In this document: positions 2,442 to 22,108 of the stretch, in pieces
How positions within the stretch are numbered: the stretch's first letter is position 1
Layout of the letters: every line of letters begins with the position of its first letter
DNA from: Opitutales bacterium
Lineage (GTDB): Bacteria; Verrucomicrobiota; Verrucomicrobiia; Opitutales; PNEW01
Direction: 5' to 3'
Assembly (NCBI GenBank): GCA_965219535.1
Contig: CBDCNV010000001.1
Location: forward strand, 1,620,001 to 1,652,000
Length of the DNA: 32,000 nt
Program-made: the position numbers and the translations under genes
Notes under the pieces: model-generated
Told to the model about the DNA's origin: nothing
Databases searched by the model: none
What the model saw: only the letters and a program-made list of their open reading frames with translations

Positions 2442-4463
2442 TCAAGCGAGTTCGATTCTTCTGATGACTCGCTTGAGAATCCATTCGCCAAGGTGTCTGT
2501 CTCTTTCAGCGCTGAAGAAATCTCGGTTGTATGGAATGAGAGTGTCCAGGTCCGGATCATAGTCGCCATAGCAGGATGGGTTCTTCAGTGCTGCTTCTAA
2601 CGCGGGAATCAGGACCTTCATCTTCGCCAAGGTCTCCCGACCATAGTACGAGAGATTAGCACCTGCTCGGCATCGTGCCCAGAGAAGATCACTTCCCAAC
2701 GCTCGGGTAAAGGCTGCGATCGCTTTCTCAGGTTGTTCGAATCGACAGAGTGCGTCTCCAGCGGCGAGGCTTACGCTGAGCGAGTTGTCATTAACGAACT
2801 GGGTGAGCTTTTGAATGGTATCGTCGTCCGCATCAAATGACATCAGCCCAGTCACGGCCCAGTAACGGATCGCACTGTCTGGGTCATCCAGGCGCTCAAA
2901 CAGGATTGCCCTGCCTTCTTCACCTAAACGTGAGAGATCGGCGGTCTCCAGGATACGTTCGAAATTCTGACACTGAGTGCCCACTTCGTAGTTCACGCCA
3001 CCGTATTCTGCGGCCCTAACGATCATTTCTGTTTCATCGATAAGCCCCAGGTCTCGCGTCTCGATCATCCAGGCAAACAGAGTTTTCCGCATCCGTTCAG
3101 TGATCGCATCGAACTCAGGGTTGTCAGCGAGGTTGTCAACTGCTTCCGGGTCCTCCTCGAGGGCATACAATTCCTCGAACGGTTTCGATTCCTGCCAGAT
3201 GAGATATTCGGAGTGAGACTCTGGAAGAGGCATCAGGAACACGCCATCGGGATCATGTATCTTCTGCTCCCCCGGTAAACAGGAAGTTTCCCAGAAAGCG
3301 TGCTCGGGTGTACCTTCGGTTGGAATCTCCCTGAAGAATCCGCCGTCGGGAAAGAATGATCCGTAGGGTCGGTGTGGAAGGAAGTTGCGAATGTAGCGAT
3401 ACCTTTGGTCTCTCACCGTACGGATCATCTCATTGCAGTTGTCCAGTCGGTCACGCGCACCGCAGACATATTCACGGGACCGACTTCTTTCAGGTCCGAG
3501 AAATGCCTTCCCCTGGAAGTGATCCGGAATCGGCACCCCGGCCATACTGAGAACCGAGGGTCCCATGTCCATTGTCATTGTTAAGTCTTTCACGACGGAC
3601 CCCGGAGAGCCGGGCGCGTAGTGCTGATACGCTTTCGGGAATCTGACGATCAGAGGAACCCTAAGCCCATCGTCGTAGACGTGGGTTTTTCCGCGAGGGT
3701 AACCCGTTCCATGATCTGTCCAGAAAAAGACGATAGTGTTTTCGGACAGGCCTTGTTTCTCGAGATTCGATAACACTTCACCTACATGGTAATCGACCTG
3801 GGTAAGGGTGTCGTAGAAGAGGGCTGTCCGCTCACGCGCGAGCGGTGTATCGGGCACAAAACTCGGAATCGGGGCACTTTTGGGATCGTGTAGTTCATCG
3901 GGTTGTAACAGGTTTGACCGTTCGTTTCGAACCTGTTCAGGAGTCATCTTGTAGGTGCTGGCGTGCGATTCTGAAAAGCTGTAAACCGCAAAGAAGGGCT
4001 GCCCATTCGCTCCCTCTGCGAGCAGGGCATCGTTATCCAGGTACTGCTCCCATTCGACTGGGTCAATCGGGGTGTTGAGATCCGTATTGATAGGCGAGCT
4101 TCGATAACCCGCATCTCCCAGGTAGTGAGTCAGCATTTTGATGAAATCCGGTCGGATAACGAAACTGCGATGATGATGGGTGCCGACTGTCGTCTGGTGC
4201 ATCGCCGTAAAGATGCTCGTGCGGGCAGGGGAGCAGATCGGTCCGGACGCGAACGCATGGGTATATCGAATCCCTTCTATCGCTAGCTTATCTATATTGG
4301 GTGTTGTCGCGTAAGCATTCCCGTAGCAGCCAAGACTGTCGGCACCCACATCGTGGGTGTTGATCCAAAGAAAATTCGGGCGTGCGCCGTTTAAAGAGGG
4401 GTCAGGTTTCATGGTGTTTCGTAGAGTATCTGGATCTGTTCGGGCTTGACTCGGGGAGGCCAA
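2442..4463 (-). CDS. Formylglycine-dependent sulfatase with a C-terminal HEAT-like repeat domain
   Basis: 673-aa ORF. It has the sulfatase C-x-P-x-R signature (PICSPARTSIFT), an N-terminal NTHDVGADSLGCYGN and FFWTDHGTGYPRGK. The C-terminal ~170 aa reads as HEAT/armadillo-like helical repeats (DPDSAIRYWAVTGL...LSVSLAAGDAL). No signal peptide is visible at either candidate start (4463 or 4412). Confidence 0.9.
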   Translation of the reverse strand: MASPSQARTDPDTLRNTMKPDPSLNGARPNFLWINTHDVGADSLGCYGNAYATTPNIDKLAIEGIRYTHAFASGPICSPARTSIFTAMHQTTVGTHHHRSFVIRPDFIKMLTHYLGDAGYRSSPINTDLNTPIDPVEWEQYLDNDALLAEGANGQPFFAVYSFSESHASTYKMTPEQVRNERSNLLQPDELHDPKSAPIPSFVPDTPLARERTALFYDTLTQVDYHVGEVLSNLEKQGLSENTIVFFWTDHGTGYPRGKTHVYDDGLRVPLIVRFPKAYQHYAPGSPGSVVKDLTMTMDMGPSVLSMAGVPIPDHFQGKAFLGPERSRSREYVCGARDRLDNCNEMIRTVRDQRYRYIRNFLPHRPYGSFFPDGGFFREIPTEGTPEHAFWETSCLPGEQKIHDPDGVFLMPLPESHSEYLIWQESKPFEELYALEEDPEAVDNLADNPEFDAITERMRKTLFAWMIETRDLGLIDETEMIVRAAEYGGVNYEVGTQCQNFERILETADLSRLGEEGRAILFERLDDPDSAIRYWAVTGLMSFDADDDTIQKLTQFVNDNSLSVSLAAGDALCRFEQPEKAIAAFTRALGSDLLWARCRAGANLSYYGRETLAKMKVLIPALEAALKNPSCYGDYDPDLDTLIPYNRDFFSAERDRHLGEWILKRVIRRIELA

Positions 4464-7837: not shown

Positions 7838-7928
7838 TGTGCGTGGAGAATATCATGATCGGATAAGAATTCACTTTTTAGCCGGTAGAGACACGCGCCA
7901 TTTGAGGCTGACCTGAACGAGCGGTTTC
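7838..7928 (-). repeat. Leader/promoter repeat E, copy 1 (upstream of the TauE-like gene)
   Basis: It shares blocks with 10030-10116: gataagaa (7862-7869), agacacgcgcc (7889-7899, an exact 11-mer), ttgagg (7902-7907) and agcggtttc (7920-7928). The blocks are in the same order and at similar distances from the minus-strand start codon. Confidence 0.5.
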
Positions 7929-10029: not shown

Positions 10030-10116
10030 GTGGGGTGAAGAATGTAAGGTCATCAGATAAGAAATTGCTTATGTGCTGTTACAGACACGCGCCTGTTGAG
10101 GTCAGCGGTTTCATGG
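10030..10116 (-). repeat. Leader/promoter repeat E, copy 2 (upstream of the second PhyH gene)
   Basis: Same ordered blocks as copy 1: gataagaa (10056-10063), agacacgcgcc (10083-10093), ttgagg (10096-10101), agcggtttc (10104-10112). By eye, roughly two thirds identity over ~90 nt. Confidence 0.5.
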
Positions 10117-10310
10117 TGATTCATAGCGAGACTAAGCCCGAACTGCCCCGCGAAGGCGAGAGTAAAGCTAGGTATTATGGATTCTGCTTCGTTTATCTCT
10201 TAAATCCATAATCATTTATCCGCTTGAAATTAAGCCTTACTTCGACGATACTGTTACTGGATTATCTGATCTTTGAGAGTTAAGTAACTCTTTAACTTTA
10301 AATTGAATTT

Positions 10311-10666
<356 letters not shown>

Positions 10667-10668
10667 GC

Positions 10669-10697
10669 CTTCGCCATTGGCGTAGGCTGCCACGTCG
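10669..10697 (+). repeat. 29-nt hairpin-forming motif DR1, copy a (two nt after the tmRNA CCA)
   Basis: cttcgccattggcgtaggctgccacgtcg. It can fold as gccttcgcc-att-ggcgtaggc. It recurs at 11107-11135 (27/29). Confidence 0.7.
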
Positions 10698-10698
10698 T

Positions 10699-10767
10699 AG
10701 CTCATAGAGCGAAGACGGGCTTAACTGTACAAGCGTACCATTCTCTTCGGCTACGGCTTGGCAAGCC
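10699..10767 (+). repeat. ~69-nt module B, copy 1 (between DR1a and GIY-YIG gene 1)
   Basis: agctcatagagcgaagacgggcttaac...ttctct...acggcttggcaagcc aligns with 22202-22268 (agctcacggagcgaagacggacttaac...ttctct...acggcatgcaaccc). By hand alignment about three quarters of positions are identical. Confidence 0.6.
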
Positions 10768-10847
10768 AGCTTAATAAATTACACAGTTCATTCACTTGCA
10801 GAGTAATCGTCTTCTTAAGTTGCGACTATTCAGACCGTAGCTAAATT

Positions 10848-11096
10848 ATGAAGGGATTCCATTATATCTACATGATGAATTCTATAAAATACCCAAAAAG
10901 AATTTACGTTGGTTCAACTACTGACCTCGAATCAAGGCTCACCAAACACAATCACGGCGAAGTGCCTTATACTTCAAAGTATATTCCCTGGCGCATTAAA
11001 ACAGCTGTTGCATTCTCCGATTCTAAAAGAGCAATGGCATTTGAATTGTATCTCAAGACTGCTTCTGGGAGATCTTTCGCAAAGAAACACTTCTAA
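10848..11096 (+). CDS. Stand-alone GIY-YIG (URI-domain) nuclease family protein
   Basis: 82-aa ORF: ...HYIYMMNS...RIYVGSTTDLESRLTKHNHGEVPYTSKYIPWRIKTAVAFSDSKRAMAFELYLKTASGRSFAKKHF. This is the GIY...YVG motif pair with conserved R and H/N spacing, typical of the ~80-100 aa single-domain clade. Confidence 0.85.
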   Translation: MKGFHYIYMMNSIKYPKRIYVGSTTDLESRLTKHNHGEVPYTSKYIPWRIKTAVAFSDSKRAMAFELYLKTASGRSFAKKHF

Positions 11097-11106
11097 AATA
11101 ATAACA

Positions 11107-11135
11107 CTTCGCCATTGGCGAGGGCTGCCACGTCG
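11107..11135 (+). repeat. 29-nt hairpin-forming motif DR1, copy b (between the two GIY-YIG genes)
   Basis: cttcgccattggcgagggctgccacgtcg. Two substitutions (TA>AG) relative to copy a still allow the stem cttcgcc-att-ggcgagg. Weaker similarity continues ~15 nt further (tagc-catag). Confidence 0.7.
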
Positions 11136-11204
11136 ACTTGTCTAGCCATAGTCCTCGCATTTTAACAAAAAATAAATATACGTGTATGCGAAGCCTGACC
11201 CTTT

Positions 11205-11429
11205 ATGTATTCCGGATCATTCTACATTGGCCATACTGTTAATCTGGAATCAAGAGTGACAAAACACATTAGTGGACAGGGTCCCCAATATACGAAGCAC
11301 CGTCGACCGGTAAGAGTAGTATATTTTGAAGCGCACGACTCACGAGAGAGTGTAATAAAAAGAGAAAAGCAACTGAAAGGTTGGTCACGTAAGAAAAAGA
11401 AAGCACTGATTAACGGGAAAATTAATTAA
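11205..11429 (+). CDS. Stand-alone GIY-YIG nuclease family protein, second clade; the N-terminal beta-strand appears lost or frameshifted
   Basis: 74-aa ORF: MYSGSFYIGHTVNLESRVTKHISGQGPQYTKHRRPVRVVYFEAHDSRESVIKREKQLKGWSRKKKKALI. It has the YIG, R, H and E(x)KREKQLK motifs. The expected first strand (x-YVY-x) is present just upstream (tac gtg tat at 11179-11187) but in another frame. The gene is therefore either 5'-frameshifted or uses a shortened N-terminus. Confidence 0.7.
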   Translation: MYSGSFYIGHTVNLESRVTKHISGQGPQYTKHRRPVRVVYFEAHDSRESVIKREKQLKGWSRKKKKALINGKIN

Positions 11430-11569
11430 TAAAGAAAATATCGTTCTTTTTTATTAGACTAATCTCTCGCACCGCCTTACTGCTCACCAATTGGAAATGC
11501 TTGCAACAGGACGTGTTACCTCTTTGCAAAAAATTAAACACGAGGTGTATTTATACAGCGCAGCAAGGA

Positions 11570-11623
11570 GTCAGGCTCTGCATTCTGACATACATAATTA
11601 TATGTCGGAATGCAGAGCCTGAC
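11570..11623. repeat. Near-perfect 23-bp inverted repeat (long hairpin) with an 8-nt loop
   Basis: gtcaggctctgcattctgacata-cataatta-tatgtcggaatgcagagcctgac has one G:T position and is followed by ccccttttgcctttt. It may act as a terminator for the GIY-YIG pair or be a small MITE/REP-like insertion. A half-copy atgcgaagcctgaccc lies at 11186-11201. Confidence 0.7.
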
Positions 11624-11651
11624 CCCTTTTGCCTTTTCTGAAACGATTATA

Positions 11652-11816
11652 AATTTCTCAGCCAAATACCAGATTCGGCCTAAAATGAATCTATTCGTAG
11701 ATTTCTTCAATCTCACAGAACAACCTCAGAACAGTTTCGAAGGTGATGTTCTGCGCCCGACCGACCGAATTTTCAGTTCCTGGAGAGCGCGTGTCGGTCT
11801 GAATATGTCCTTATAA
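11652..11816 (+). pseudogene. Possible C-terminal remnant of an outer-membrane beta-barrel (TonB-dependent-receptor-like) gene
   Basis: The frame reads NFSAKYQIRPKMNLFVDFFNLTEQPQNSFEGDVLRPTDRIFSSWRARVGLNMSL*. The alternating beta-strand pattern and a NL(F/T)(D/E) motif near the end resemble TBDR C-termini. No N-terminal part exists; the frame opens inside the hairpin. Judged by eye only. Confidence 0.25.
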
Positions 11817-11982
11817 AATCCTTATTCTATTTATCCTCGAATATAGTGTAAAAATTAAAATGCGCCTATCCATCGAGAGCCGCGGTTCATCGCACTTGAG
11901 CAAAAACGAAAGCAAATTTTGGGGTTGGAGGAGGAGTGAGTTTATAAGAATAAAGAGAGCATCGATTTATTGAGGAAATATT

Positions 11983-12038
11983 TGAGAGGGGAGTGCCAAG
12001 GTATACCTTCGATTATAAAACCCCTCTCATCACTTTTT
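11983..12038 (+). terminator. Structured hairpin followed by a T-run (terminator-like or regulatory) upstream of the large secreted-protein gene
   Basis: A 9-bp perfect stem, tgagagggg (11983-11991) / cccctctca (12021-12029), encloses an inner palindrome aaggtatacctt. It is followed by tcacttttt. Confidence 0.35.
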
Positions 12039-12195
12039 GGTAGCCTAGACAGCTGGATCGGTTTTCACTCAGGGAAATATCGCAGAGAACTTTCTCAATC
12101 GCAGATGCAACGATAATTGATAGACAATATTCAGGGACAGTTTAGAAGTTCAACCCCGTTTGACATTAACGCTCTTCCTCTTTAATTTTTTTATC

Positions 12196-14442
12196 ATGGG
12201 TTTCCTAATGCACTTTATAAATCGCGTTTCTTTCTTGTTATTGTTAACAGCATCGAGCTTGCCGCTTCTGCTCTCAGCTCTTCCTCAAGATCTGGAGGTG
12301 TTCACTGATTTCGAGGACATAAGCGGGGAAGGTGAATTTTTTATCGGGGAAGAGCCCAATAGGATCAAGTTAGTCGGATTCACGGTGGAAACTCTGGATG
12401 ATCCTGCGCTCTTACACTCCGGAACAAAGGCGATAACCCTAGGACCTGGTCAGGAGGGGGTAATTGTATCGGAAAGAGGAATTGATGAAATCCAATTCTA
12501 TGCGGCCGAGAATACGGGAGCCGGTAGAATCGAGCCCAGAGGAAATTTCTCTTTTGAAGGCAATATATTTGTATTAGTTCTAGCGGATAATGGTCTTGTC
12601 GAAGGTCTACCGACCAATATCAGTCCCAGTGCCAATCCACCATTACAAAGCTTCGTTTCAGACAGTGATATGTTCCTCGACTCAACCGATTTTGACTTTC
12701 TCGACGGCATTAAAGAATTAAAAATTAAAAATGTTTCAGGAAAATTCTCCCTTGACGATCTGGGTTTCACGATAACGGAAAGACCGTCCAATAACACCGT
12801 ATTCACTACATTTGAGGAATTCAGTGTGGGTGCAGGATTAACGGCACCCATTATTGTTGGAGAATCACCCAATAGTGCTACCTTTGAGGGTGGCTCGATA
12901 CTAGCTGCTGCTGCAGACAGTCCAGTTCGCTCGGGACAAGTATCCTATGGTATTTTTAACGGAGAAAGCTTCACGGTCACTTTTGAAACTCCGGCATTTG
13001 AGATCGATGTTTTCGCCGCAGCCATTATTTCGGCTGGCAGTAATGACCCCGACGGCTCAATTGAAGTTTACGATACTAATGATAACCTTCTTGCTAATAT
13101 TTCGGACTTGGAAAGTGCTGGAAGTGGTGGGGGTGCTGGGGGTCTTAATGCATTAAATAAACCCCGTCAAACTACGATCAATGCGGTGGAGTTGGGAGCT
13201 CCAGGCGGCATTGGCAGACTGCTTGTTACGGACAATCCCAATATAAATGTAGCTTTCAGCCGGACAGTCTTCGATGATTTCGGTTTTACCCCCATTGGCG
13301 CACCGGGCACAGGCTCCGAGGGTCCCCCACCCGCGGATGCTCCCACTATCACCACCCAGCCCGCCAGCCAGGATGTGCAGTCGGGTGCATCGGCAAACTT
13401 ATCTGTTGCTGCCAATGGGGATGATCTTACTTACCAGTGGTATGAAGGCAACAGTGGTGACACCGCCAGCCCCGTCGCCGGTGCCACAGGCGGCACCTTA
13501 ACTACCAGCGCTCTAACCGCGAATACCAGCTTCTGGGTACAGGTGACGAACGCAGGCGGCAGCGCCAACAGTGATACTGCTGTGATCACCGTAGCCGCTC
13601 CTTCCGTTCCCCTCGTTCTCGACGGCTCGGGCGATATCGCCGGAGAAAATATTCAGCATGCCAACGGTAATGTCTTCGACCAGATATTACTCACCGGAGA
13701 GTCCGTCCAACTCCAGGCCAAACCGGGACAGATCACCCGCGTCTCTTTCATGGATGAAAACGAGGACATCGTGCAGGTAGAATTTTCAGGTGTAGGATCC
13801 TTTACCGTAACCCTGGATCCAGCCACCTTCCTGCCCCCGGCCATTCCCCCACGCTACAACCAGGCCGTTGAGTACGTGACGGGCAAACCGAGCGTAGTGA
13901 TCGACGGTGCGGACGCCAATACCTTCTTCAGTATCTTCACCGTGGGTAGGATCAACGCGTTTAACCAGGCCCTCTTCCCCGAGGGACAGGTCTATGACGC
14001 GCAAGCGGACGTGACCCTCGTTGAAGTTGTAAATTCCACGGGCATGGGCGGCATACAACTGTCGAACACCGCGTTCAGTGGAAGTACAGGCAAGACCGGT
14101 ATCGACGCGCGTGGGGTCCCGATCGCGGTACGCTTAACGATTGGCGATATCGATGCCAGTGGCGATGCGGTACCGCACATACTGTTTGGCTCAGGCTCCT
14201 TCACGGTACCCGCGGGCAACCCCGGGTTACGGATCACGGGTGGAGATCTATTGCAGACAAACGGTGCGGCAGTCGTGGTAGCGGAGAGTGGATCGACGAC
14301 GACGGGATTCGATACCTTGATCACGCAGAACAACTTCAAATCAGACAACACGCCTCAGCCCACGCTAAGCATCGATGCCACCTTCGCCAACGAGGATGGC
14401 GATGATATCGAGGTTACGACAGAAGAATTGACGATCGAATGA
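12196..14442 (+). CDS. Large secreted protein of unknown function with a bacterial Ig-like domain
   Basis: The track ORF starts at TTG 12160. More likely starts are ATG 12196 or 12208 (MHFINRVSFLLLLTASSLPLLLSALPQ, a signal peptide). The mid-region PTITTQPASQDVQSGASANLSVAANGDDLTYQWYEGNSGDTASPVAG...VQVTNAGGSANSDTAVITV is a typical Ig-like (I-set/Big-type) repeat. A Gly-rich linker is present. The remaining ~600 aa match no family I recognise. Confidence 0.8.
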   Translation: MGFLMHFINRVSFLLLLTASSLPLLLSALPQDLEVFTDFEDISGEGEFFIGEEPNRIKLVGFTVETLDDPALLHSGTKAITLGPGQEGVIVSERGIDEIQFYAAENTGAGRIEPRGNFSFEGNIFVLVLADNGLVEGLPTNISPSANPPLQSFVSDSDMFLDSTDFDFLDGIKELKIKNVSGKFSLDDLGFTITERPSNNTVFTTFEEFSVGAGLTAPIIVGESPNSATFEGGSILAAAADSPVRSGQVSYGIFNGESFTVTFETPAFEIDVFAAAIISAGSNDPDGSIEVYDTNDNLLANISDLESAGSGGGAGGLNALNKPRQTTINAVELGAPGGIGRLLVTDNPNINVAFSRTVFDDFGFTPIGAPGTGSEGPPPADAPTITTQPASQDVQSGASANLSVAANGDDLTYQWYEGNSGDTASPVAGATGGTLTTSALTANTSFWVQVTNAGGSANSDTAVITVAAPSVPLVLDGSGDIAGENIQHANGNVFDQILLTGESVQLQAKPGQITRVSFMDENEDIVQVEFSGVGSFTVTLDPATFLPPAIPPRYNQAVEYVTGKPSVVIDGADANTFFSIFTVGRINAFNQALFPEGQVYDAQADVTLVEVVNSTGMGGIQLSNTAFSGSTGKTGIDARGVPIAVRLTIGDIDASGDAVPHILFGSGSFTVPAGNPGLRITGGDLLQTNGAAVVVAESGSTTTGFDTLITQNNFKSDNTPQPTLSIDATFANEDGDDIEVTTEELTIE

Positions 14443-14487
14443 TCTACCGATCACGTGTTAGGTTTTAAGTGTTAGGTGATTAGGTGG

Positions 14488-14509
14488 AACGCGCTGTCCC
14501 TAGCGCGTT
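14488..14509 (+). terminator. Candidate intrinsic terminator after the secreted-protein gene
   Basis: GC-rich 8-bp stem aacgcgct-gtccct-agcgcgtt followed by tgatt. The T-tract is weak. Confidence 0.4.
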
Positions 14510-14690
14510 TGATTATGTCGTCATTGAAGAAGTGTGCTAGAGATCAGCTTTCGCTATTCAATTTAAAGTTACAGCGGCGGTCAGGTAACTCGCCTCTGCG
14601 GACGAAGACGAAGCTTTATTAACTATCTTAGTGCCTCTCCTATTAAGCACCATATAGGTGAGCAAAACTTAAATTTAACAAACTCCCTTT

Positions 14691-15449
14691 TTAGGATTCT
14701 TTTCTACGATTTCCGATAATTTTTTCACGGGCAAGCTCGATCGGAACATTTCTTAAAGACTCTCGCCAGATCCCCTGCGGAGCGGCCCATTTTATCGCAT
14801 TGTAGATTATCTTGATAACCGTCTTATTTTGATAAATCGGAAAAGTTTCATGCCCAGGTCGAAAGTAGAAAATTTGTCCATTGCCGCGACGCCAGCAGTT
14901 CCCACTGCGAAAAACCTCTCCACCCTCAAACCATGAAATAAAAATCTGTTCTTCAGGTGGTGGAATATCGAAAGGTTCACCATACATCTCGGTGTTTTCT
15001 ATTTCAAAGCATTCATCGATTCCCTCGGCGATGGGGTGCCCCGGGTTGCATACCCACAACCGCTCTTTCTCACCGGCTTCACGCCAATTCAACATACATG
15101 TCGTACCCATGAGGCGAAGAAAAACTTTTGATAAATGAGCGGAATGTAAGGGGATAAATCCCATACCCTCAAGCACGCGTATTTGTACTCTTTCGCTAAT
15201 AGTTTCGTCAACTTTATCGTGGGCACTGTGTCCCCACCAAACCAGCACATCTGTTTTAGCTAAACGTGAGCCAGTTAAGCCATGTTCTGGATCTTCGAGT
15301 GTAGCAGTTTCAATTTCCAGATCATTACCAATTTCCATTAATTCCCTCATTAATGTTTCATGAATACCTTGAGGATAGATAGATTTCACTTCATCCCTTT
15401 CTCTCTCATCGACGAATTCATTCCAAATAAGAACACGTAGTTTACTCAT
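14691..15449 (-). CDS. ThuA-like (trehalose-utilisation) class-I glutamine-amidotransferase-fold protein
   Basis: 252-aa ORF: MSKLRVLIWNEF...DVLVWWGHSAHDKV...GFIPLHSAH...FYFRPGHETFPIY. This conserved block order is characteristic of ThuA-domain proteins. Confidence 0.88.
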   Translation of the reverse strand: MSKLRVLIWNEFVDERERDEVKSIYPQGIHETLMRELMEIGNDLEIETATLEDPEHGLTGSRLAKTDVLVWWGHSAHDKVDETISERVQIRVLEGMGFIPLHSAHLSKVFLRLMGTTCMLNWREAGEKERLWVCNPGHPIAEGIDECFEIENTEMYGEPFDIPPPEEQIFISWFEGGEVFRSGNCWRRGNGQIFYFRPGHETFPIYQNKTVIKIIYNAIKWAAPQGIWRESLRNVPIELAREKIIGNRRKES

Positions 15450-16112
15450 ATCTTTGATTTGTTATCCGGGATTTCCCATATGACGGGAATGAATCGTTAA
15501 AATTGTCGACCTCTGAAGCTTTCGAAAGCATTTTGCTCCTTTCAAGACACTTTGGCAATCCTCTTTCCGTGGTATCTGCAAGTTGCATAGGCGGTAATTA
15601 CTGTTCATTGAGAATTTGACCGTTACCCGAGGAATACTGGCGTGAGTGATTCTGTGCGGTTAGAGAATCTCGCGGCACTTGATCCTTTGGTATCGAAAAA
15701 TCCTCTTTCTCACCCCGTATCGAGTGCGAGTCGCAATCGCTCTACTCGCCTCAGCATGGTTCGGAACATTACCCTTGGAATGGCCACCTCAGCCATCTGG
15801 AAGGTGATATACCTGGCATGGTGGACCACCTTTGCTCCGATTTGCTCCCTACTTCCAGCGTTGGAAGTGGGGAGTTCCTGGCACTCTCAACCGTAGCTAC
15901 CTGTGTATCCTTTTTCGAGTCCTTCCTCCGACGAGTTATGTGCACCCATTCTCGGAAGGACTCTATTAGCTCGCTTCTCATTAACAGGTAACCTACAAGA
16001 GGCAGGCGAAGATTATTGATTATCTCGATTATACTGATCACTAACAATGACGAAACATTTACATTATCACCTGCCCTAATCGATACTACACAGTCTTAGC
16101 TTAATTAGCGTT

Positions 16113-18182
16113 ATGAAGGTATTCTATTTCAGCAGGTATCGGATACCGATCACACTATGCATGATGGCAATCATTATTGCAGCATTTGGCTGCAGCAGGA
16201 GCAATGACACTCAATCAAAAGGAAAACTGGACACACTTAAACGAGACGCTGTCAGTACTGAAGGATTTAGTTTTATTTATAAGGGCTCGATTCCCACAAC
16301 CTTCAACGAAGCGCCGGAACTGGCAAAGCGCGTTGCTGCGGGAGAGTTACCCTCGGTAGAAGACCGTCTGCCCGAAGAGCCGTTGATTATTCCACCCATT
16401 GAACGCATCGGCCAATACGGTGGTACCTGGCGCCGCGGTTTTACGGGGCGTGGCGATCGTAACAACATCGACCGGATAATACACGATCATATAATTTACT
16501 TCGATATCGACGGATATACCCTGATGCCCCACATCGCGAAAGGATGGGAAATCAGCGTAGACGGGACAATGTTTACTTTCCATCTGCGCCAGGGCATGAA
16601 GTGGTCTGACGGAACGCCGTTCACGGCTGATGACTTTGTTTTCGCCTTCGAAGACGTGACCTTGAATGATAATATCAACCCGGTAATACCCAACTACACA
16701 AAAGCGGATGGGCAACGGTTTAAAGTGGAAAAGTTAGATGAGACCACGGTTCGTTATACCTTTCATAAACCAAACTATGTATTCATCGAGAATGCTGGTG
16801 GATTAGCCGTGGGAGGCCAATTCGCCCGCCGATGGGAAAGCCCTCTCTATGCTCCCCGGCATTATTTAATGCAGTTTCACTCGAAGTATACCCCCTTAAG
16901 TGATCTGAAAATTAAGATGAAGTCTACGGGTGATAGAAGTTGGGTGCAACTCTTCAAACGCATGGCTTCGCCCCACGAGAACCCCGAAATACCGGTGGTC
17001 GGTCCCTGGAAGATGGTTACTCCGATAACGAGTGAAATTTACTCTTTGGAACGCAACCCCTATTACTTTGCCGTCGATCCCGAAGGGAATCAGCTTCCCT
17101 ATATCGACAAGATTGTAATGCATCTGGTTGAGGACTTAGAGGTGTTCAATGCTCGCGTTATGGCTGGCGAAGTAGACATGCAGCACCGTCATGTCCTCTT
17201 GGACAAGGTCCCTGTTCTCAAGCGGGAAGCAAATAGAGGTAATTACCGCGTACTCTTCTGGCCTAATTTAGGAGGTTCCGATGCCATAATATTTATTAAC
17301 CAAACCTGGCAGGGAGATCCGGAAATAGAAAAGTGGCTTAGAAACCGTAAATTTCGCATTGCTCTGTCTCTTGCTATCGATCGAGAGGAGATACACGAAT
17401 CGATCTTTCTGGGCATGGGTCAGCCAAGGGCCTTGGTCCCATTCCCGAATAACCCGTATTATCCCGGACCGGAGTACGAAAAAAAGAATGCGGTGCGCGA
17501 CCTGGAACAATCCAACGCGATCCTCGACGCTATCGGTTTGGATAAAAAGGACAACGAAGGATACCGCCTGCGCACTGACAATAAGGAACGTCTGATTATT
17601 ACGCAATCAGTGCTGAGTCAGGCGATGGTAAATTTTGAAGGTATAGCTGAACTTCTCGTGAATCACTGGAAGGATATCGGCATAAATATACATTTAAGCG
17701 TTGAAGAGCGAAGTTATTATAGCAGACGTCAATCAATCAACGATCACCAACTTAGCATGTGGGTTTCGGGCGGTTCTGAAAACCCGTGGACTTTACCCGG
17801 CATGACCATACCACTCAGTCGCGGTACCTTTGCGTCGCAAATCGGCTTATGGTATGAATCTAACGGTCGAAAGGGCGTAGCCCCTTACGGCGATCTTAAA
17901 CGTTTGATAGAAATATTTGAGGAAGGTAATGGCCTGCCCAAAGCGATGCGAACGGAACTGGGAAAAGAAATATGGAGAATCCATTCAGACAATCTCTATG
18001 TTATTGGCACTGTCGGGCAATCACCGGCTATGAACGGCATTGTCGTGGTAAAAAATAATTTTCGTAATGTTCCCGATGTCGCGCCAAACAGCGCAACCTT
18101 ACAAACCCCCGGCATCGCCCGCCCCGAACAATTCTTTTTTGATCGGGTTTGTAGAGAGTGGACCGACAACGAAAGGAATTGA
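16113..18182 (+). CDS. ABC-transporter family-5 (peptide/oligosaccharide/nickel type) solute-binding protein, orphan, probable lipoprotein
   Basis: 689-aa ORF. The N-terminal signal peptide ends ...IIAAFGC-SRS (Cys after the hydrophobic core). It has family-5 SBP blocks (GGTWRRGF..., MPHIAKGWEIS.DG..FTFHLRQGMKWSDG.PFTADDF, RNPYYFAVD). No permease or ATPase genes are nearby. The last ~12 codons (RVCREWTDNERN*) lie in foreign sequence (see 18151-18312). Confidence 0.88.
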   Translation: MKVFYFSRYRIPITLCMMAIIIAAFGCSRSNDTQSKGKLDTLKRDAVSTEGFSFIYKGSIPTTFNEAPELAKRVAAGELPSVEDRLPEEPLIIPPIERIGQYGGTWRRGFTGRGDRNNIDRIIHDHIIYFDIDGYTLMPHIAKGWEISVDGTMFTFHLRQGMKWSDGTPFTADDFVFAFEDVTLNDNINPVIPNYTKADGQRFKVEKLDETTVRYTFHKPNYVFIENAGGLAVGGQFARRWESPLYAPRHYLMQFHSKYTPLSDLKIKMKSTGDRSWVQLFKRMASPHENPEIPVVGPWKMVTPITSEIYSLERNPYYFAVDPEGNQLPYIDKIVMHLVEDLEVFNARVMAGEVDMQHRHVLLDKVPVLKREANRGNYRVLFWPNLGGSDAIIFINQTWQGDPEIEKWLRNRKFRIALSLAIDREEIHESIFLGMGQPRALVPFPNNPYYPGPEYEKKNAVRDLEQSNAILDAIGLDKKDNEGYRLRTDNKERLIITQSVLSQAMVNFEGIAELLVNHWKDIGINIHLSVEERSYYSRRQSINDHQLSMWVSGGSENPWTLPGMTIPLSRGTFASQIGLWYESNGRKGVAPYGDLKRLIEIFEEGNGLPKAMRTELGKEIWRIHSDNLYVIGTVGQSPAMNGIVVVKNNFRNVPDVAPNSATLQTPGIARPEQFFFDRVCREWTDNERN

Positions 18183-18312
18183 AACCTTGATCTCCCAGAA
18201 CAACTTCAAGCCAGACAACACTCCACAACCGACGCAGACTGTCGAAGCAATCTTCGCAAACGAAGATGGTGATGAGATTGCGGTAACCGTGAATGAGGAA
18301 ACGATCGAATGA
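18151..18312 (+). pseudogene. 3'-terminal remnant (53 codons + stop) of a paralogue of the 12196-14442 secreted-protein gene
   Basis: VESGPTTKGIETLISQNNFKPDNTPQPTQTVEAIFANEDGDEIAVTVNEETIE* aligns without gaps to the last 53 aa of the large protein (AESGSTTTGFDTLITQNNFKSDNTPQPTLSIDATFANEDGDDIEVTTEELTIE*; 14281-14442). It has no upstream body and abuts and overlaps the SBP 3' end in another frame. Confidence 0.7.
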
Positions 18313-18418
18313 TCCTTCAAGGGGTATGGCCAGTTATCCCCTCACTCATAAAAACGTCGTCAGCGCCTCAGCGCTTGAGATTACTATCCTGTGATTGGTT
18401 AACTATTAAATCCTCTCT

Positions 18419-18499
18419 GGGAAAAAACACCTCCGCCGCATACGGGTTAATGGATTATCGATTGATTAAGGGTATGTTTTTTTACCGCCCCCCGCCCCC
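18419..18499 (+). repeat. Junction-associated repeat D, copy 1
   Basis: The core tccgccgcatacgggttaatggatt (18432-18456) matches tccgctgcatacgggtttatggatt (21791-21815) at 23/25. Both continue with gattga, atgt(g)ttttt and a C-rich tract. Confidence 0.55.
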
Positions 18500-18664
18500 A
18501 TTAATTGTATCAAAATTGTATCAGATTTATTGCCATTATTTACCTCTAGTTACTGCTTGATCGCTTTTTCTAATATTTAAAGCAATGGACGATTGCGCGT
18601 CCAAGCCCTTCTTTTACAGCCAGATGCCTTTTATTACCGCTTAAAAATCAAACAGTTAATAAGG

Positions 18665-18899
18665 TTACAAGGCGGGTTCGAGACCCACCTCCTGGAGCTT
18701 GCCCCTGTATTCATCACAGTAGGTTTTGGATTCCGCGGCCTTGTCCAGGTCGATGGCGCGATCGTTCCCAGGCCGGGATCTGCACCCCCTTGTATCCCAG
18801 ACCTGCGACCCACCGGCCGATATTGTCGATGGTGTTGTAGGGTTCATCGTCCCGCATAAACTGGGCCAGGAAAATAGCCGGACCTTTGATGTGTGACAT
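18665..18899 (-). pseudogene. Xylose-isomerase-like TIM-barrel (sugar phosphate isomerase/epimerase) gene, frameshifted and 3'-truncated
   Basis: Frame A reads MSHIKGPAIFLAQFMRDDEPYNTIDNIGRWVAGLGYKGVQIPAWE. The sequence then continues in another frame as DRAIDLDKAAESKTYCDEYRGKLQEVGLE, followed by PAL*. Only ~75 of the expected ~280+ residues are present. The start lies 4 nt after the PhyH stop, which implies a former operon. Confidence 0.6.
18672..18692 (+). repeat. Degenerate third copy of the tmRNA 3' core (pseudo-att) at the truncation point of the TIM-barrel pseudogene
   Basis: gcgggttcgagacccacctcc compared with tmRNA gcgggttcgactcccgccacctcc: an exact 10-mer, then ccc and acctcc with a 3-nt gap, in the same orientation as the other two copies. 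Confidence 0.4.
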
Positions 18900-18902
18900 G
18901 AA

Positions 18903-19778
18903 TTACTCCTTTTCGATGGATTCGGGTTCGTGCTCGATGAAACGGGCTCGGGCAAAGGGCAGGTGGGTGGCGCCTCGGACGAGGATTTGGTTGGCATTAC
19001 CGCCGCTCCATTCCGTATAAGAGCGGGCGTTGGCGTAGTGACTCACAAAAGCGCGCCGGTAACGATTCTTACTGTGGTTTCGGTGTGAACGGTGGATGAG
19101 GTGGCCGTGGAAGAAAATCACATCGCCACCCTTGGCTTCGGCCAGAATTTCCTTGCTTTGGTCCACACCCGCGAGTTCGAAAAGTTGGGCATGAAAATCT
19201 TCGGTGTTTTCAGGCAAAGTTGTATTTTCATAGATAGGGTCGAAATTAGAGCCGGGGATAAATGACATGCAGCCGTTTTCCTCGTCGCAATCATCGATCG
19301 CGATCCAGGCGCCGCAGAGGGTATCGGGCGCAGAGGTAATAAAGCATGAATCCTGGTGAAAGGCCTGTCCGGGGTGGCCCGGCGGCTTGAAGAACAGCAT
19401 CGACTGCATGGCCATCAAGTCGGGGCCGATGAGGGCTTCCAGGACATCGAGGACACGGGGGTGGAGCATGAAGCGCTCATGGATTTCGAGGTGACGGTGG
19501 AACTGAAAGAAGCGGAAATATTTTTCTTCCATATCGGCCGGCGAGGTGCCGTCGTTTATCGGTTCCAGTCCTTTGATTTGGCTCAGATCCACTTTGTTGT
19601 GAAGCAGGTTCATGGAGTGTGCATCAAGTTCCCGCAACTCCGAGTTGGAAAGCAGACCTTCGACCTTGAGATAGCCGTTGCGGCCGAAAAAATGTCGCTC
19701 GTCAAGACTCACCTGGTATTTTTCTCTGTCAGATGTCTTCATGGACAAAGGTTCCCTGTTCGGGGAATGGGTGATCAT
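18903..19778 (-). CDS. Phytanoyl-CoA dioxygenase (PhyH) family Fe(II)/2-oxoglutarate oxygenase
   Basis: 291-aa ORF: FFGRNGYLKVEGLLS, HxD element (AFHQDS), distal His (FFHGHLIHRS), R-x-A-x-x-x-HY tail. The start may be ATG 19742 (MKTSDREKY). Confidence 0.85.
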   Translation of the reverse strand: MITHSPNREPLSMKTSDREKYQVSLDERHFFGRNGYLKVEGLLSNSELRELDAHSMNLLHNKVDLSQIKGLEPINDGTSPADMEEKYFRFFQFHRHLEIHERFMLHPRVLDVLEALIGPDLMAMQSMLFFKPPGHPGQAFHQDSCFITSAPDTLCGAWIAIDDCDEENGCMSFIPGSNFDPIYENTTLPENTEDFHAQLFELAGVDQSKEILAEAKGGDVIFFHGHLIHRSHRNHSKNRYRRAFVSHYANARSYTEWSGGNANQILVRGATHLPFARARFIEHEPESIEKE

Positions 19779-19928
19779 CTTGGTATCATGAAGTTGACGA
19801 GCTTCCTAAATATCTGTCAAGCTTCTAGCCTTGGGGTAAATAAAAGTGGTGGGTAATTCCATATGACTTATTGAGAATGCCCAACCCGTTCAGGTTTATA
19901 CCTTTCCCTTTCTTAACTCCCGGGGATC

Positions 19929-20972
19929 TTAAGCTTCTTCCCATACATCTACATTCAACTGCTGCACACGTTTGTCCAGGACAGGAACTCGTTTACCGGT
20001 TCTGACCGCTTTGACTGCCGCGAAAACCATGGCAACGCTGTGTATGTTGTCAAATACATCTGTTTGCGGTCGTTTACCTCTTTTTACTGAAAAAATAAAG
20101 TCGTTAAGAACAAAATCCTGCAAGGTGTTTTCCGGTCCTTTTGCCCGAAACGTATCTGTCCTATTAACCTTGTAAAGCTTGGGCACCTTCCTGAGAGAAA
20201 TCTTTCCATTCTCATATGAAATGGACCCCTTACTACCCTCAATCTGCCAGTTGCCATCCACGCTACAGAATTGACCCTTAGAAGACCAGCTCGCGTTGTA
20301 GACGACACGTACATTATTCTCCATCTCAAACACCAGCGAAGACGAACTGTCACCTTTGTAGTTTGACCATGCAGGATTCCAGGCTTCACCTCGGACAGAC
20401 ATGGCATTGAGACCGGTAACAAAGCGAACGAGGTCAAAATGATGTATCGCCATATCAATTAGGAGAGGATCCCTCATTTCATGACGGAATCCACCGCCAA
20501 AATCATGGCCCATATAGAAATCTATCTTAACCTGGCCGATATCGCCAATCCGTCCACTTTCGACCAGACGAGCGAGTGTCCATGTTTCCGGTCTATAGCG
20601 ATAATTCTGGCTGACAACACATGTCTGTCCGGTATTTCGTGATGCTCTCAGGATTGACATGCAACTGGCAAGATTATCGGCCATCGGTTTCTCGGTAATC
20701 ACGTCAAGACCCGCCTTCATGGCCTGGACCACACACTGCTTGTGATACTCAGGTGGAGTAACGCATACGAGGGCATCCGCTTTGACCTTCTTCAACGCTT
20801 CGTTCAGTTTTGAGAAGCAAATATCTTTTCCGTAATTCCCAACTTTGCGGGCAGCCGTCAGGGCAGTCTGATTCACATCTACCAGCGCAACGACTTCGAC
20901 AGATGAATTATTTGTCAGCCGTTGTACCCACCCTTTGCCAAATCCACCTACACCAATTTGAATGAATCGCAT
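19929..20972 (-). CDS. Gfo/Idh/MocA family NAD(P)-dependent oxidoreductase
   Basis: 347-aa ORF with an N-terminal Rossmann motif MRFIQIGVGGFGKGW, the EKP motif (VITEKPMA) and a C-terminal alpha/beta dimerisation domain of typical length. Confidence 0.9.
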   Translation of the reverse strand: MRFIQIGVGGFGKGWVQRLTNNSSVEVVALVDVNQTALTAARKVGNYGKDICFSKLNEALKKVKADALVCVTPPEYHKQCVVQAMKAGLDVITEKPMADNLASCMSILRASRNTGQTCVVSQNYRYRPETWTLARLVESGRIGDIGQVKIDFYMGHDFGGGFRHEMRDPLLIDMAIHHFDLVRFVTGLNAMSVRGEAWNPAWSNYKGDSSSSLVFEMENNVRVVYNASWSSKGQFCSVDGNWQIEGSKGSISYENGKISLRKVPKLYKVNRTDTFRAKGPENTLQDFVLNDFIFSVKRGKRPQTDVFDNIHSVAMVFAAVKAVRTGKRVPVLDKRVQQLNVDVWEEA

Positions 20973-21019
20973 TTTTTCTATTCTCTTGTGATTTCATTTC
21001 CGCAGAACGTCAAGCCTCA

Positions 21020-21616
21020 GTGGTCGACGAGCCGGTGCACGCCTACATCACGCAGGAGGTGATGACGCCCCTCGAGATGCAAGGCGCTGCGTTCGTGTGG
21101 ACAGGGAACGAGGACCTGCCCGTTGCGCATACGCACGATGCGGAAGGTAAAGCCAAACCGAAGGCAATTCTGCCCAAGATGAATGCCGCCGCTAGTCTTC
21201 ACTGCAGCGCGCTGGATTACGCCCGCTTCCTGCGCATTGTGCTGACACAGCCTCGCGACCATCCGCTTCGACTTTCGGATGATCTACACCGCGCGATGTT
21301 CACGCCGCAGGTCCCGGTCAACGACTCCATCGACTGGCACGACGACTGGCCACGGAAAACCACTCGACTGCACGATACGATCCAGTGGGGTTTGGGCTGG
21401 GGCATCCATCGCGACGACGACCAGCTCGCTGCGTGGCAGTGGGGCTCAAACCCTTGCACACGATCGTTCGTCATCGGCTTTCCCGAATCCCGTACCGGCG
21501 CGGTCTTCATGGGCAACAGCGGCAACGCAGAACGACTCTGGGGCGAATTGACGCAAGCACTTTTCGGGGAACCTTTCCCACCAGTGGAGTGGGTAGAGAA
21601 GAGCTCCGGGGCTTGA
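21020..21616 (+). pseudogene. 5'-truncated serine hydrolase (beta-lactamase/PBP4-like, class-C fold) gene fragment
   Basis: The 198-aa frame matches only the C-terminal half of PF00144-type proteins (...ITQEVMTPLEMQGAAF..., WGLGWG...GAVFMGNSGN). The N-terminal S-x-x-K and Y-x-N regions are absent. There is an abrupt rise in GC at ~21010 immediately next to the Gfo/Idh/MocA promoter region. Confidence 0.7.
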
Positions 21617-21779
21617 CGACCCGAGAGGCCGTTATTTGGATGATATGCGATGTGGCTACACGCTCGCGAGAAAACCACTATAGGCATGGAAAAGGAACGG
21701 AAAACAAATCGCTGCACTTGACGGTAATTCCACTGCGCTCCATCCCCACCAGTGAGCTCAATCGTTATTGATTCACTTC

Positions 21780-21856
21780 AGGAAAATCAATCCGCTGCAT
21801 ACGGGTTTATGGATTGAGGATTGAGTCGATGTGTTTTTGCGAGACCCCTCCCCCCT
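21780..21856 (+). repeat. Junction-associated repeat D, copy 2
   Basis: See copy 1. The core at 21791-21815 is followed by gaggattgagtcgatgtgtttttgcgagacccctcccccc. Confidence 0.55.
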
Positions 21857-21995
21857 TCTTTTATGTGAGCGTTTTGTGCATGATATTTTGGGTATTCGGG
21901 GACATTCGTTGCCTATCAGTGCCAAATTAAATAATGTGGAGATTTTGCAACGTTCGTAATTGCATGATCTTATGCATATTACTAAATTGCACTAT

Positions 21996-22024
21996 CGCGG
22001 TTTCGACTCCCGCCACCTCCACCA
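21996..22024 (+). repeat. Displaced tmRNA 3'-end fragment (attR-like)
   Basis: cgcggtttcgactcccgccacctccacca is 28/29 identical to 10638-10666. No matching 5' acceptor strand, tag ORF or pseudoknot region lies upstream, so it is not a second tmRNA/tRNA gene. Confidence 0.8.
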
Positions 22025-22108
22025 TTCGACTCCGGCTTGTTGGCCGTCGCTCATGGCAGGCCATTTGGTCTTGCTTAAGACAGGCTAACAGGCCGGAGTC
22101 GAATGGTG
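22020..22108. repeat. 17-bp perfect inverted repeat overlapping the end of the tmRNA fragment
   Basis: caccattcgactccggc (22020-22036) and gccggagtcgaatggtg (22092-22108) are separated by 55 nt. Each arm carries another copy of the T-loop core ttcgactc (22025-22032 direct, 22097-22104 inverted). Confidence 0.65.

Follow-up and report, generated by a model that had tools for sequence, protein, structure and literature searches.

What are small, stand-alone GIY-YIG nuclease genes doing among structured repeats at the very 3' flank of a transfer-messenger RNA (tmRNA) gene? The question is raised by a 32,000-nucleotide (nt) stretch of DNA from an Opitutales bacterium (contig CBDCNV010000001.1, positions 1,620,001 to 1,652,000, forward strand), here called the window. 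A preliminary description of it placed, directly past the tmRNA gene, two copies of a 29-nt repeat (DR1), a second repeat (module B), two GIY-YIG open reading frames (ORF1 and ORF2) and a hairpin. Each of these elements is indeed there, the tmRNA gene included. We find that this flank is best explained as one functional member, plus the decayed remains, of a widespread family of mini-cassettes, in which a structured leader and a minimal Slx1/UPF0213-like GIY-YIG gene are docked, co-oriented, at the CCA end of a tRNA or tmRNA gene. Our survey of this family shows a docking rule, a conserved leader structure with an alternative helix, specificity of the leader for one nuclease clade, framing of the gene by leader copies, and turnover of the units. 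The parts of the window on which this account turns are as follows.

10311-10666, + strand: tmRNA gene (ARAGORN; Rfam RF00023, 137 bits), tag GNQELALAA
10665-10666, + strand: last two bases of the tmRNA gene (C10665 and A10666), which form the first two pairs of leader helix P1
10665-10689, + strand: leader helix P1, CAGCCTTCGCC-ATT-GGCGTAGGCTG, covering most of DR1 (minimum-free-energy fold, RNAalifold and pair counts)
10669-10697, + strand: DR1 copy 1, starting 2 nt past the tmRNA gene; forms repeat D9 with copy 2
10690-10720, + strand: leader helices P2 (CC.CGTC with GACGGG) and P3 (GCTC-ATA-GAGC), reaching from the last part of DR1 into module B
10699-10760, + strand: module B, 77% identical to a second copy, B', at 22202-22263 (repeat D3)
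10748-10770, + strand: leader segment (5), CGGCTACGGCTTGGCAAGCCAGC, at the end of module B; alternative partner for the 5' strand of P1
10771-10847, + strand: spacer or 5' untranslated region (UTR) between leader and ORF1, conserved among Opitutales relatives
10848-11096, + strand: ORF1 (GIY1), 82 amino acids (aa), a predicted intact minimal GIY-YIG nuclease gene
11107-11135, + strand: DR1 copy 2, identical to copy 1 at 27 of 29 positions

ORF1-clade genes lie behind tRNA and tmRNA ends

With a profile of the ORF1 clade (A1) we retrieved 80 metagenome loci, designated by L numbers below, whose proteins are 50-64% identical to ORF1. Thirteen of them have less than 300 nt of upstream DNA, which leaves 67 informative loci. 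ARAGORN places a co-oriented tRNA or tmRNA end 93-420 nt upstream of the GIY gene in 53 of these 67, with a typical tRNA-to-gene distance of about 100-200 nt, and detects no upstream tRNA or tmRNA gene in 14. In bacteria, about 1% of genes lie directly downstream of a tRNA. The upstream genes span 15 tRNA identities plus tmRNA (seven loci), and where no tRNA is called, most leaders still adjoin either the 3' end of a tRNA or tmRNA truncated by the contig edge or a degenerate remnant of such an end.

The cassettes are small, at about 0.35-0.9 kb, and comprise a leader of about 70-130 nt and a gene of about 80 codons. Database entries of 100-140 aa (matches P0038-P0186 and P0015) are frequent in the clade. 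N-terminal extensions such as "RRSASEDGH" are spurious, because gene callers extend ORFs through the stop-free, GC-rich leader.

Displaced 3' fragments of tRNA or tmRNA genes lie at the borders of several loci: in the window (21996-22024) and in L015, L016, L021, L036, L061 and L080. The last of these reads tmRNA, another GIY gene, tmRNA 3' fragment, leader and GIY1-type gene.

The leader is a structured element that begins at the CCA end

All spacers between the tRNA-like end and the gene share an architecture that starts exactly past the CCA. Segment (1), G(C/T)CTTCGC, is followed by a variable loop (2), often GGAGCGAAGCGGA, and by a conserved segment (3), GCGAAGGCTG, then CC; segment (4), GCC.CG.C ... 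G.CGGGC, surrounds a small variable hairpin; and segment (5), GCTACGGCTCGGCAAGCCAG, stands after (4) in type I leaders, the window's form, or within the loop between (1) and (3) in type II leaders. DR1 of the window consists of a (1)-loop-(3) hairpin in its smallest form together with the 5' strand of (4); module B supplies the remainder. Helix P1 pairs C75-A76 of the tRNA or tmRNA end and GCCTTCGCC (the next 8-10 nt) to GGCG.AGGCTG. In the window it is a hairpin of 11 pairs that include one T.T mismatch. The short DR1 hairpin proposed earlier does fold in both copies, the mismatched position of copy 1 being fully paired in copy 2 through T-A and T.G, but the hairpin is longer than was thought, since it begins with C75-A76 of the tmRNA.

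RNAalifold predicted the three helices P1-P3 independently from a MAFFT alignment of 20 type I leaders (A2). Across A2, 95.6% of cells are paired, and changes on both sides occur in 12 of 22 pairs (47 cells); its covariation of 0.344 compares with 0.143 for shuffled alignments, none of 500 of which reach it, and with at most 0.097 when partners are slid. The covariance model that we derived from A2 gives 141 matches at E ≤0.01, every one in a GIY locus, and none in 10 control loci or 80 viral loci; within the window it matches 10665-10720 only. Aligned to the model, the 79 matches at E ≤1e-6 (A5) are 96.0% paired, with double changes in 16 of 22 pairs (158 cells) and a covariation of 0.292, against 0.116 for shuffles (0 of 500 as good) and at most 0.078 when slid. 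Since A5 was fitted to the model, A2 is the less biased test. The preliminary description proposed a search for covariation and for further copies of DR1 and module B: covariation is strong in both alignments, and the repeats recur well beyond chance, in five Opitutales loci and as the 79 covariance-model leaders, tightly linked to GIY-YIG genes of the ORF1 clade and to tRNA or tmRNA 3' ends.

The covariation is spread over all three helices. Because the pairs between C75-A76 and the TG of segment (3) are invariant, it says nothing on those two; the P1 positions that follow covary as CAGTC/GACTG, CAGAC/GTCTG, CAGGC/GCCTG and CATCC/GGATG (columns 3/35 and 4/34). In P2, columns 43/76 appear as CG, UA, GC and AU, and all four pairs of P3 covary. 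G.U pairs outnumber A.C pairs by 40 to 20, a mild indication that the sense strand is the one that folds, whether in RNA or in the non-template DNA.

The leader can also fold in a second way. The 5' strand of P1 and the start of the loop are complementary to segment (5) as well, and in 21 full-length leaders (A3) the resulting alternative helix reaches 83% pairing, with double changes in 38 cells and a covariation of 0.292 (0.141 for shuffles, 0 of 500 reaching it; at most 0.149 when slid). Thus, one strand carries two mutually exclusive helices that both covary. In the window, segment (5) is also complementary to CCGTAGC (10835-10841), directly before the ATG; the minimum-free-energy fold reproduces P1-P3 with segment (5) paired to this CCGTAGC (z = -3.0). 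The motif GCGAAG occurs three times per unit.

The position of the leader is strict. Among 79 strong leaders, 57 stand behind a CCA with a T-loop-like motif. Another 8 stand behind a CCA only, and are degenerate fragments, internal units after ...GGCAAGCCA, or leaders behind a post-stop CACCA. The 12 that do not follow a CCA are copies just past a stop codon or later units of an array, with the sole exception of a mis-registered match in L098. About ten other tRNAs in the same loci have no GIY gene beside them, and the leader was not found at any of these; it is confined to the neighborhoods of GIY1-clade genes. The earlier proposal that the repeat set travels with tmRNA ends rather than with one gene therefore stands only in part: the set does go with tRNA-like ends, but also with the GIY1-clade gene, as the leaderless tRNAs indicate.

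No family in Rfam (15) matches any leader at gathering or permissive thresholds (E up to 1-10). At the gathering score, the tRNA and tmRNA genes are the only hits; the big hairpin behind ORF2 draws microRNA-like scores. The leader is thus a structured RNA or DNA motif absent from Rfam and apparently undescribed. We considered and set aside several resemblances: a low-scoring similarity to "permuted tmRNA" where the CCA meets the hairpin (25.8 bits, with the cut-off at 47); a strand order reminiscent of the hepatitis delta virus (HDV) ribozyme, in which P1 would span the putative cleavage site and no ribozyme model scores; and a tRNA-like module B or segment (5), which has no ARAGORN or Rfam support and whose TTCGACT similarity is too short. 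A pattern of the leader core has more than 120 exact matches in viral contigs, which we attribute to chance in GC-rich DNA, as 0 of 80 tested loci contain a covariance-model match.

DR1 and module B are two halves of one unit

The preliminary description treated DR1 and module B as separate repeats. Both are real, but each is one half of the same structured unit, which measures about 105 nt and also exists in a long form of about 155 nt with an insert at the DR1/B joint. This follows from the order of elements around close relatives of ORF1 (95% and 87% identical), examined with their contigs: L001-L005 read tmRNA, GC, DR1, a 49-nt hairpin insert, module B and ORF1, and L007 has, past its tmRNA, a first DR1-B unit, ORF1, another DR1-B unit and, as the third, a long unit in decay.

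Five related Opitutales loci contain the unit. When a degenerate DR1 pattern was run across 185,579 species genomes, its only real matches were in two Opitutales metagenome-assembled genomes (MAGs). Ten other matches, nine in Mesorhizobium and one in a Pseudomonadota MAG, were rejected as chance or unrelated; they have at most the 25-nt string in common and no covariance-model leader. In the complete 4.5-Mb chromosome OY829953.1, the pattern occurs at just two loci. In L013, an intact tmRNA gene is followed by three tandem units, a GIY1 gene and the big hairpin known from the window; in L016, a tmRNA 3' fragment precedes the three units, and the gene before the hairpin is a GIY1 paralogue. L015, in the other MAG, combines a tmRNA fragment with two long units and one half unit.

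Other short sequences recur as well. The motif CTGAG(C/T)TT(G/A)TCGAAGG is present at 22121-22150 of the window and in L046 (1045-1065), L101 (2925-2945) and L102 (320-345); it occurs both within leader loops and among the repeats that flank other GIY-YIG genes. The long-form inserts of Opitutales, L070, L082 and L069 are marked by a related ACTTGTC. In L079 (95-190), three 33-nt tandem repeats carry the junction of ...TTCGACTCGGCACGCCAG with TCTTCATG; here segment (5) ends and runs directly into a sequence like a leader start, which mimics tRNA-CCAG followed by TCTTCG.

Leader copies frame the gene, form arrays and turn over

In many loci a second leader, often partial, begins 0-10 nt past the stop codon, frequently with CAG kept; examples are TGA followed by CAGTCTTCGC in L075, TGA followed by CCAGCCTTCGC in L028, and atatCACCAGCC in L007. 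In 12 of 77 loci, a motif resembling (1) is located no more than 30 nt from the stop codon, compared to 2.3% of background windows, so the framed architecture of the window is recurrent, not universal.

Leader arrays hold one to three units, and their number varies between close relatives; L102 and L106 differ by one 140-nt unit. Between L013 (1447-1901) and L016 (3644-4057), the units are 98-100% identical, while the GIY ORFs are 90% identical (synonymous divergence, dS, 0.28) and the inter-unit spacers are identical within each array and unrelated between the loci. The identity of the units points to gene conversion, or to very strong constraint upon them.

Arrays of structured repeats directly 5' of a small nuclease gene bring to mind a type III toxin-antitoxin-like addiction module, in which a repeated leader RNA would bind and neutralize the nuclease encoded downstream. 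The preservation of the units while their spacers diverge fits such a module, as does the threefold GCGAAG, which suggests a protein-binding site. Yet most loci have a single leader unit, no terminator separates repeats from gene, the protein is no known type III toxin and matches no PADLOC model, and exact docking at the CCA end with C75-A76 pairing would be left unexplained. We therefore regard this explanation as very unlikely.

The gene, too, appears to have changed places. Proteins behind different tRNAs are up to 84% identical (L040, tRNA-Ile, compared with L091, tRNA-Met), and 25 such pairs reach at least 75%; pairs at or above 85% share the same tRNA. Together, these values indicate that cassettes have moved among tRNA-like ends, though not very frequently. 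Among the five Opitutales relatives, variation is limited to the number of leader units and to downstream copies.

ORF1 is predicted to be an intact nuclease under purifying selection

ORF1 matches the Pfam GIY-YIG family PF01541 with 49.4 bits (E = 5.5e-13; cut-off 22.6) as a single domain (residues 5-75) with no appended DNA-binding domain. R30, H34 and E66 are invariant in the clade, and Y8 and Y20 nearly so. An AlphaFold2 model (mean predicted local distance difference test, pLDDT, 92.9) has the beta-beta-alpha-beta-alpha fold of the GIY-YIG family, with the element order E-E-H-E-H-H, and Foldseek aligns it best with Slx1 (7cq2 and 6sei; template-modeling, TM, score 0.73), At-HIGLE, 1zg2 and 1ywl, and more weakly with UvrC; the best sequence match in the PDB is again 1zg2. 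Judged by its sequence, ORF1 is an intact minimal GIY-YIG nuclease of the Slx1/UPF0213 lineage. Ratios of nonsynonymous to synonymous substitution (dN/dS) of 0.10-0.25, with one closely related pair at 0.58, show the signature of purifying selection on the GIY1 protein. The clade is large: its profile finds 3,081 cluster representatives at E ≤1e-10, and about 12,600 representatives in all. It was not found in plasmid or phage collections at the thresholds used; PADLOC has no match to GIY1, and NCBIfam has nothing informative.

These properties could also belong to a resident host module: a housekeeping repair or RNA-processing nuclease tied to tRNA or tmRNA transcription, with the leader as a cis-regulatory, processing 5' UTR and a nuclease that might cut the precursor at its CCA end. 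Purifying selection and invariant catalytic residues would be expected of such a gene, and its constancy within lineages agrees with them: the same tRNA is kept in all pairs of at least 85% identity, with groups at tRNA-Ala(ggc) and tRNA-Pro, and GIY1 is present in 5 of 5 Opitutales relatives. The alternative helices resemble an expression switch, and this protein lineage includes a fusion to a tRNA methyltransferase (PMC1564403). A housekeeping role sits poorly, however, with a gene whose upstream neighbors include tmRNA and 15 or more different tRNAs, protein identity across these reaching 84%; with tandem and decayed leader copies, some of them after the stop codon; with leaders on dead tRNA 3' fragments; with two copies in one chromosome; with degenerate genes such as ORF2; and with neighboring tRNAs that have no leader. 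We consider a resident host module rather unlikely.

ORF2 lies in a later insertion that appears to have split a leader unit

The second part of the flank, described earlier as another framed GIY-YIG cassette, has a different history. Its features are these.

11107-11158, + strand: second leader unit, 5' half of a long form, consisting of DR1 copy 2 plus ACTTGTCTAGCCATAGTCCTCGC
11159-11204, + strand: left junction of an insertion of about 11 kb, with homology to L015
11205-11429, + strand: ORF2, 74 aa, from a different GIY-YIG clade, truncated and frameshifted
11565-11592 and 11601-11628, + strand: the two 28-nt arms of the big hairpin, 93% complementary and followed by T-rich sequence (I1)
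21996-22024, + strand: displaced tmRNA 3' fragment, identical at 28 of 29 positions to 10638-10666, the last 29 nt of the tmRNA gene (repeat D2)
22020-22108, + strand: long hairpin at the displaced fragment, with 26-nt arms that are 92% complementary (I3)
22178-22268, + strand: remaining 3' half of the interrupted long-form unit, made up of GCGAGACAGGACGACGGCTGA and module B'

Positions 11107-11158 are 92-96% identical to the 5' part of the long units in L001, L013, L015 and L016, and 22178-22263 are 85% identical to the 3' part of those in L013 and L016. By these matches, DR1 copy 2 together with 11136-11158 forms one half of a long-form unit, and 22178-22268 forms the other; about 11 kb separate them, with the break in the hairpin loop and ATT present on either side of it. 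The order in the window is thus tmRNA, short unit, GIY1 and then a long unit, interrupted. The intervening segment (11159-22177) starts with the ORF2 region and ends with the tmRNA 3' fragment. L015 shares 11107-11204 at 94% identity, and the homology ends one base before the ATG of ORF2. ORF2 belongs to the later insertion that split the unit. Of the two GIY-YIG cassettes proposed to be framed by repeats, only ORF1 is framed; ORF2 is probably decaying, lies inside the 11-kb insertion and is not bounded by DR1 and B. In L015, the left junction is followed by an IS110-like transposase gene (L015 4095-5408, minus strand).

ORF2 matches the Pfam GIY-YIG profile well (55.6 bits; cut-off 22.6), but only from profile position 14; its best homologues are 53-57% identical, with none above 57%. 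Aligned with them (A4), it stops about 20 residues short at the C terminus and has no beta-strand 1. That strand, MRSLTLYVF, is encoded in the frame from 11186 (11186-11227), and the called ORF starts at an internal ATG; since this strand lies in another frame, ORF2 is frameshifted. With the GIY strand absent from its frame, ORF2 falls short of a full set of catalytic residues, and it is probably decaying.

The ORF2 clade does not follow the rule of the ORF1 clade. One of six protein clusters checked is linked to a tRNA (P0018, 266-406 nt after tRNA-Glu), and its leader starts with CCA followed by TCCTTCG...AGGATGCC. P0021 is flanked by 230-nt direct repeats, and four other members have no tRNA nearby. 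On this count we rejected an extension of the tRNA rule to the clade. GIY genes of the two clades do recur in tandem, as in L079 (leader, GIY1-type gene, 5 nt, ORF2-type gene).

The hairpin reported after ORF2 is present, with arms of 28 nt instead of the 23 bp first given. Copies that are 97-98% identical stand directly after GIY1a and GIY1b in L013 and L016, and a solitary copy of its right arm lies at 11186-11203, inside the left junction (repeat D16). The long hairpin at the displaced tmRNA fragment (22020-22108) opens its 5' arm with the fragment's CACCA, which pairs with TGGTG and so repeats the pairing logic of P1 at a CCA end; its sequence is unlike that of P1, and no gene follows.

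An insertion bracketed by a 29-nt direct repeat of the tmRNA 3' end could itself be read as debris of site-specific integration at tmRNA, with island attachment (att) sites, or of local tandem duplication, the GIY-YIG genes being passengers. A related MAG has a second tmRNA fragment with leader and GIY gene, and the locus is rearranged relative to L001, which agrees with such a history. A Pfam scan found no integrase in the 11-kb interval, whose contents are Ig_7, ThuA, SBP_bac_5, PhyH and GFO_IDH_MocA oxidoreductase domains and a beta-lactamase fragment, and none in the cassettes; we rejected an integrase-made island on this ground. Moreover, the same leader and gene stand behind 15 tRNA kinds in unrelated contigs, with covariation, which contradicts both a local duplication and a single att site. 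Simple tandem duplication, the outcome that the preliminary description had offered as its own refutation, is thereby set aside, and debris of either kind seems a most improbable account of the flank.

A possible mechanism for the cassettes

Returning to the mini-cassette family, our analysis leans, by a modest degree, towards a selfish, tRNA-end-specific cassette that lives on tRNA promoters, with a leader that preserves tRNA maturation and gates expression and a nuclease that provokes recombinational copying. The cassette would be promoterless and transcribed from the tRNA or tmRNA promoter as one tRNA-leader-mRNA, ending at the big hairpin. In the window, a promoter scan finds a single + strand promoter-like site (10224-10252), and the spacer (10771-10847) contains no + strand promoter-like or terminator-like site that we could find; we infer co-transcription because no such site lies between tmRNA and ORF1 and because the hairpin is conserved after GIY1. 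The big hairpin is accordingly a probable terminator of the tmRNA-leader-GIY unit. Folding in the sense strand, as RNA or as displaced non-template DNA, the leader would mark the tRNA 3' end so that the tRNA could still mature, and its two alternative helices may gate expression of the nuclease. A structure-specific, Slx1-like nuclease would cut leader or tRNA-end structures in DNA, and these cuts would provoke recombinational copying of leader units and gene. Copies would go to other leader-bearing or tRNA-like ends, including the displaced tRNA 3' fragments at island borders. Such an element would also turn tRNA and tmRNA ends into recombination hotspots.

Several points weigh against this mechanism. 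GIY-YIG enzymes hydrolyze DNA without joining it, which would leave insertion to host repair, and GIY1 has no DNA-binding domain that would explain sequence-specific homing. Its purifying selection means that long residence and benefit to the host are possible. All protein pairs of at least 85% identity share one tRNA, GIY1 stands behind tmRNA in all five Opitutales relatives, and no empty-site allele of the gene occurs among the retrieved loci. Framing by a downstream copy is seen in just about one-sixth of loci, and most loci are metagenome contigs without taxonomic placement. As for the leader, the G.U excess is twofold, may have been favored by alignment to the model and does not separate RNA from DNA folding; the complementarity of segments (1), (3) and (5) could partly come from templated copying instead of structural selection. 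The suggestion that these are selfish homing cassettes thus gains from turnover, different tRNAs and framing, all of which fit mobility, while selfishness and homing themselves are our inference, with no empty site found.

A bolder reading is tentative at best: that leader and minimal GIY-YIG gene form a new class, either an autonomous mobile element or an RNA-protein system, that targets the universal CCA end. The TG-ending strand of the leader, which pairs with CA, might act as a guide for a nick exactly after CCA in single-stranded DNA, or the leader might be a self-processing RNA, ribozyme-like or nuclease-assisted, that frees the tRNA 3' end; the alternative helices would then be a switch. 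If this were so, orphan bacterial Slx1-like proteins would gain a defined substrate and, possibly, a small structure-guided nuclease would be at hand.

Other features of the window

The block 10194-11099, which contains tmRNA, leader and GIY1, has different neighbors from its 89% identical relatives in L001 and L004, and its orientation is reversed with respect to both the GH172/ClpC side and the PhyH side. The tmRNA-leader-GIY1 locus is a rearrangement hotspot.

Repeated short blocks at 7858-7907 and 10052-10101 (76% identical) and at 4405-4424 and 10107-10126 (90%) adjoin the 5' sides of several minus-strand genes, including the PhyH gene beside tmRNA, and may be a shared promoter or 5' UTR element. 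Inside the insertion, a 145-nt repeat, 76% identical between its copies, lies over the 3' end of a gene for a 760-aa immunoglobulin (Ig)-like protein (14273-14417) and again from the 3' end of a 689-aa SBP_bac_5 gene to about 100 nt past its stop codon (18143-18287).

Significance and comparison with known systems

Stand-alone UPF0213/COG2827 proteins are among the commonest small "nuclease family" genes in bacteria, and to our knowledge they have no established cellular role or genomic rule. One large clade now gains a strict, testable rule, comprising CCA-end docking, a covarying leader and two alternative helices, and this rule indicates biochemical substrates, namely leader hairpins and tRNA gene ends in DNA or RNA form. 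It further suggests a reason for integrase-free recombination hotspots at tRNA and tmRNA 3' flanks, and a caution for annotation, where displaced tRNA fragments beside cassettes can pass for integrase-made att sites.

Minimal prokaryotic Slx1-like GIY-YIG domains form a class whose role was given as unknown by Dunin-Horkawicz et al. (PMC1564403), and a Caulobacter survey recorded small COG2827 genes in multiple copies (PMC1839093). The preliminary description knew of no earlier account of this architecture; full-text searches, with most subscription journals outside their scope, returned no account of tRNA-end docking or of the leader, and no prior description of the arrangement.

The closest parallel in genome position is the Seg family of phage T4, whose member SegB is a GIY-YIG homing enzyme encoded within the T4 tRNA gene cluster (PMC2330249). 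Seg genes, like GIY1, are intron-less GIY-YIG genes between conserved genes and with a tRNA neighborhood, and a spread by nuclease-induced recombination with co-conversion of flanks is proposed for them as for the cassettes. They differ in that Seg proteins have about 200 aa or more and a DNA-binding domain, whereas GIY1, at 82 aa, is a catalytic core only; in that GIY1 belongs to the Slx1/UPF0213 lineage and not to the I-TevI/UvrC lineage of Seg; and in that no Seg element is known to have a conserved structured leader paired to a CCA end.

In structure, GIY1 is nearest to Slx1 and the UPF0213 proteins (YhbQ, YazA, BH0048 as 1zg2 and EF2693 as 1ywl), with which it shares a minimal GIY-YIG core (PMC1564403). 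Slx1, unlike GIY1, requires Slx4 and carries a RING/PHD domain, and docking with a leader is specific to the GIY1 clade, distant ORF2-clade members not being linked to tRNA.

Islands and prophages with tyrosine integrases use the same class of target and leave displaced tRNA or tmRNA 3' fragments at their borders, as here. They carry an integrase, however, whereas the cassette has none and measures about 0.35-0.9 kb; its junction lies exactly past the CCA instead of inside the gene, and a folded leader takes the place of an att core.

ToxIN resembles the cassettes in its tandem structured RNA repeats directly 5' of a small nuclease gene. Its protein has another fold, and the cassette usually has a single unit, no intervening terminator and a tRNA docking that the ToxIN comparison leaves unexplained.

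Finally, repetitive extragenic palindrome (REP)/REPIN-RAYT systems, IS200/IS605 elements and integron attC cassettes also place small folded repeats beside one small gene, recognize hairpins on one strand and have a target of a few bases next to the hairpin, comparable to the CA of the CCA here. They use HUH enzymes or tyrosine recombinases, and GIY1 is a hydrolytic GIY-YIG nuclease; no integron integrase is present, and the leader repeats, at two loci in OY829953.1, are not dispersed as REP sequences are.

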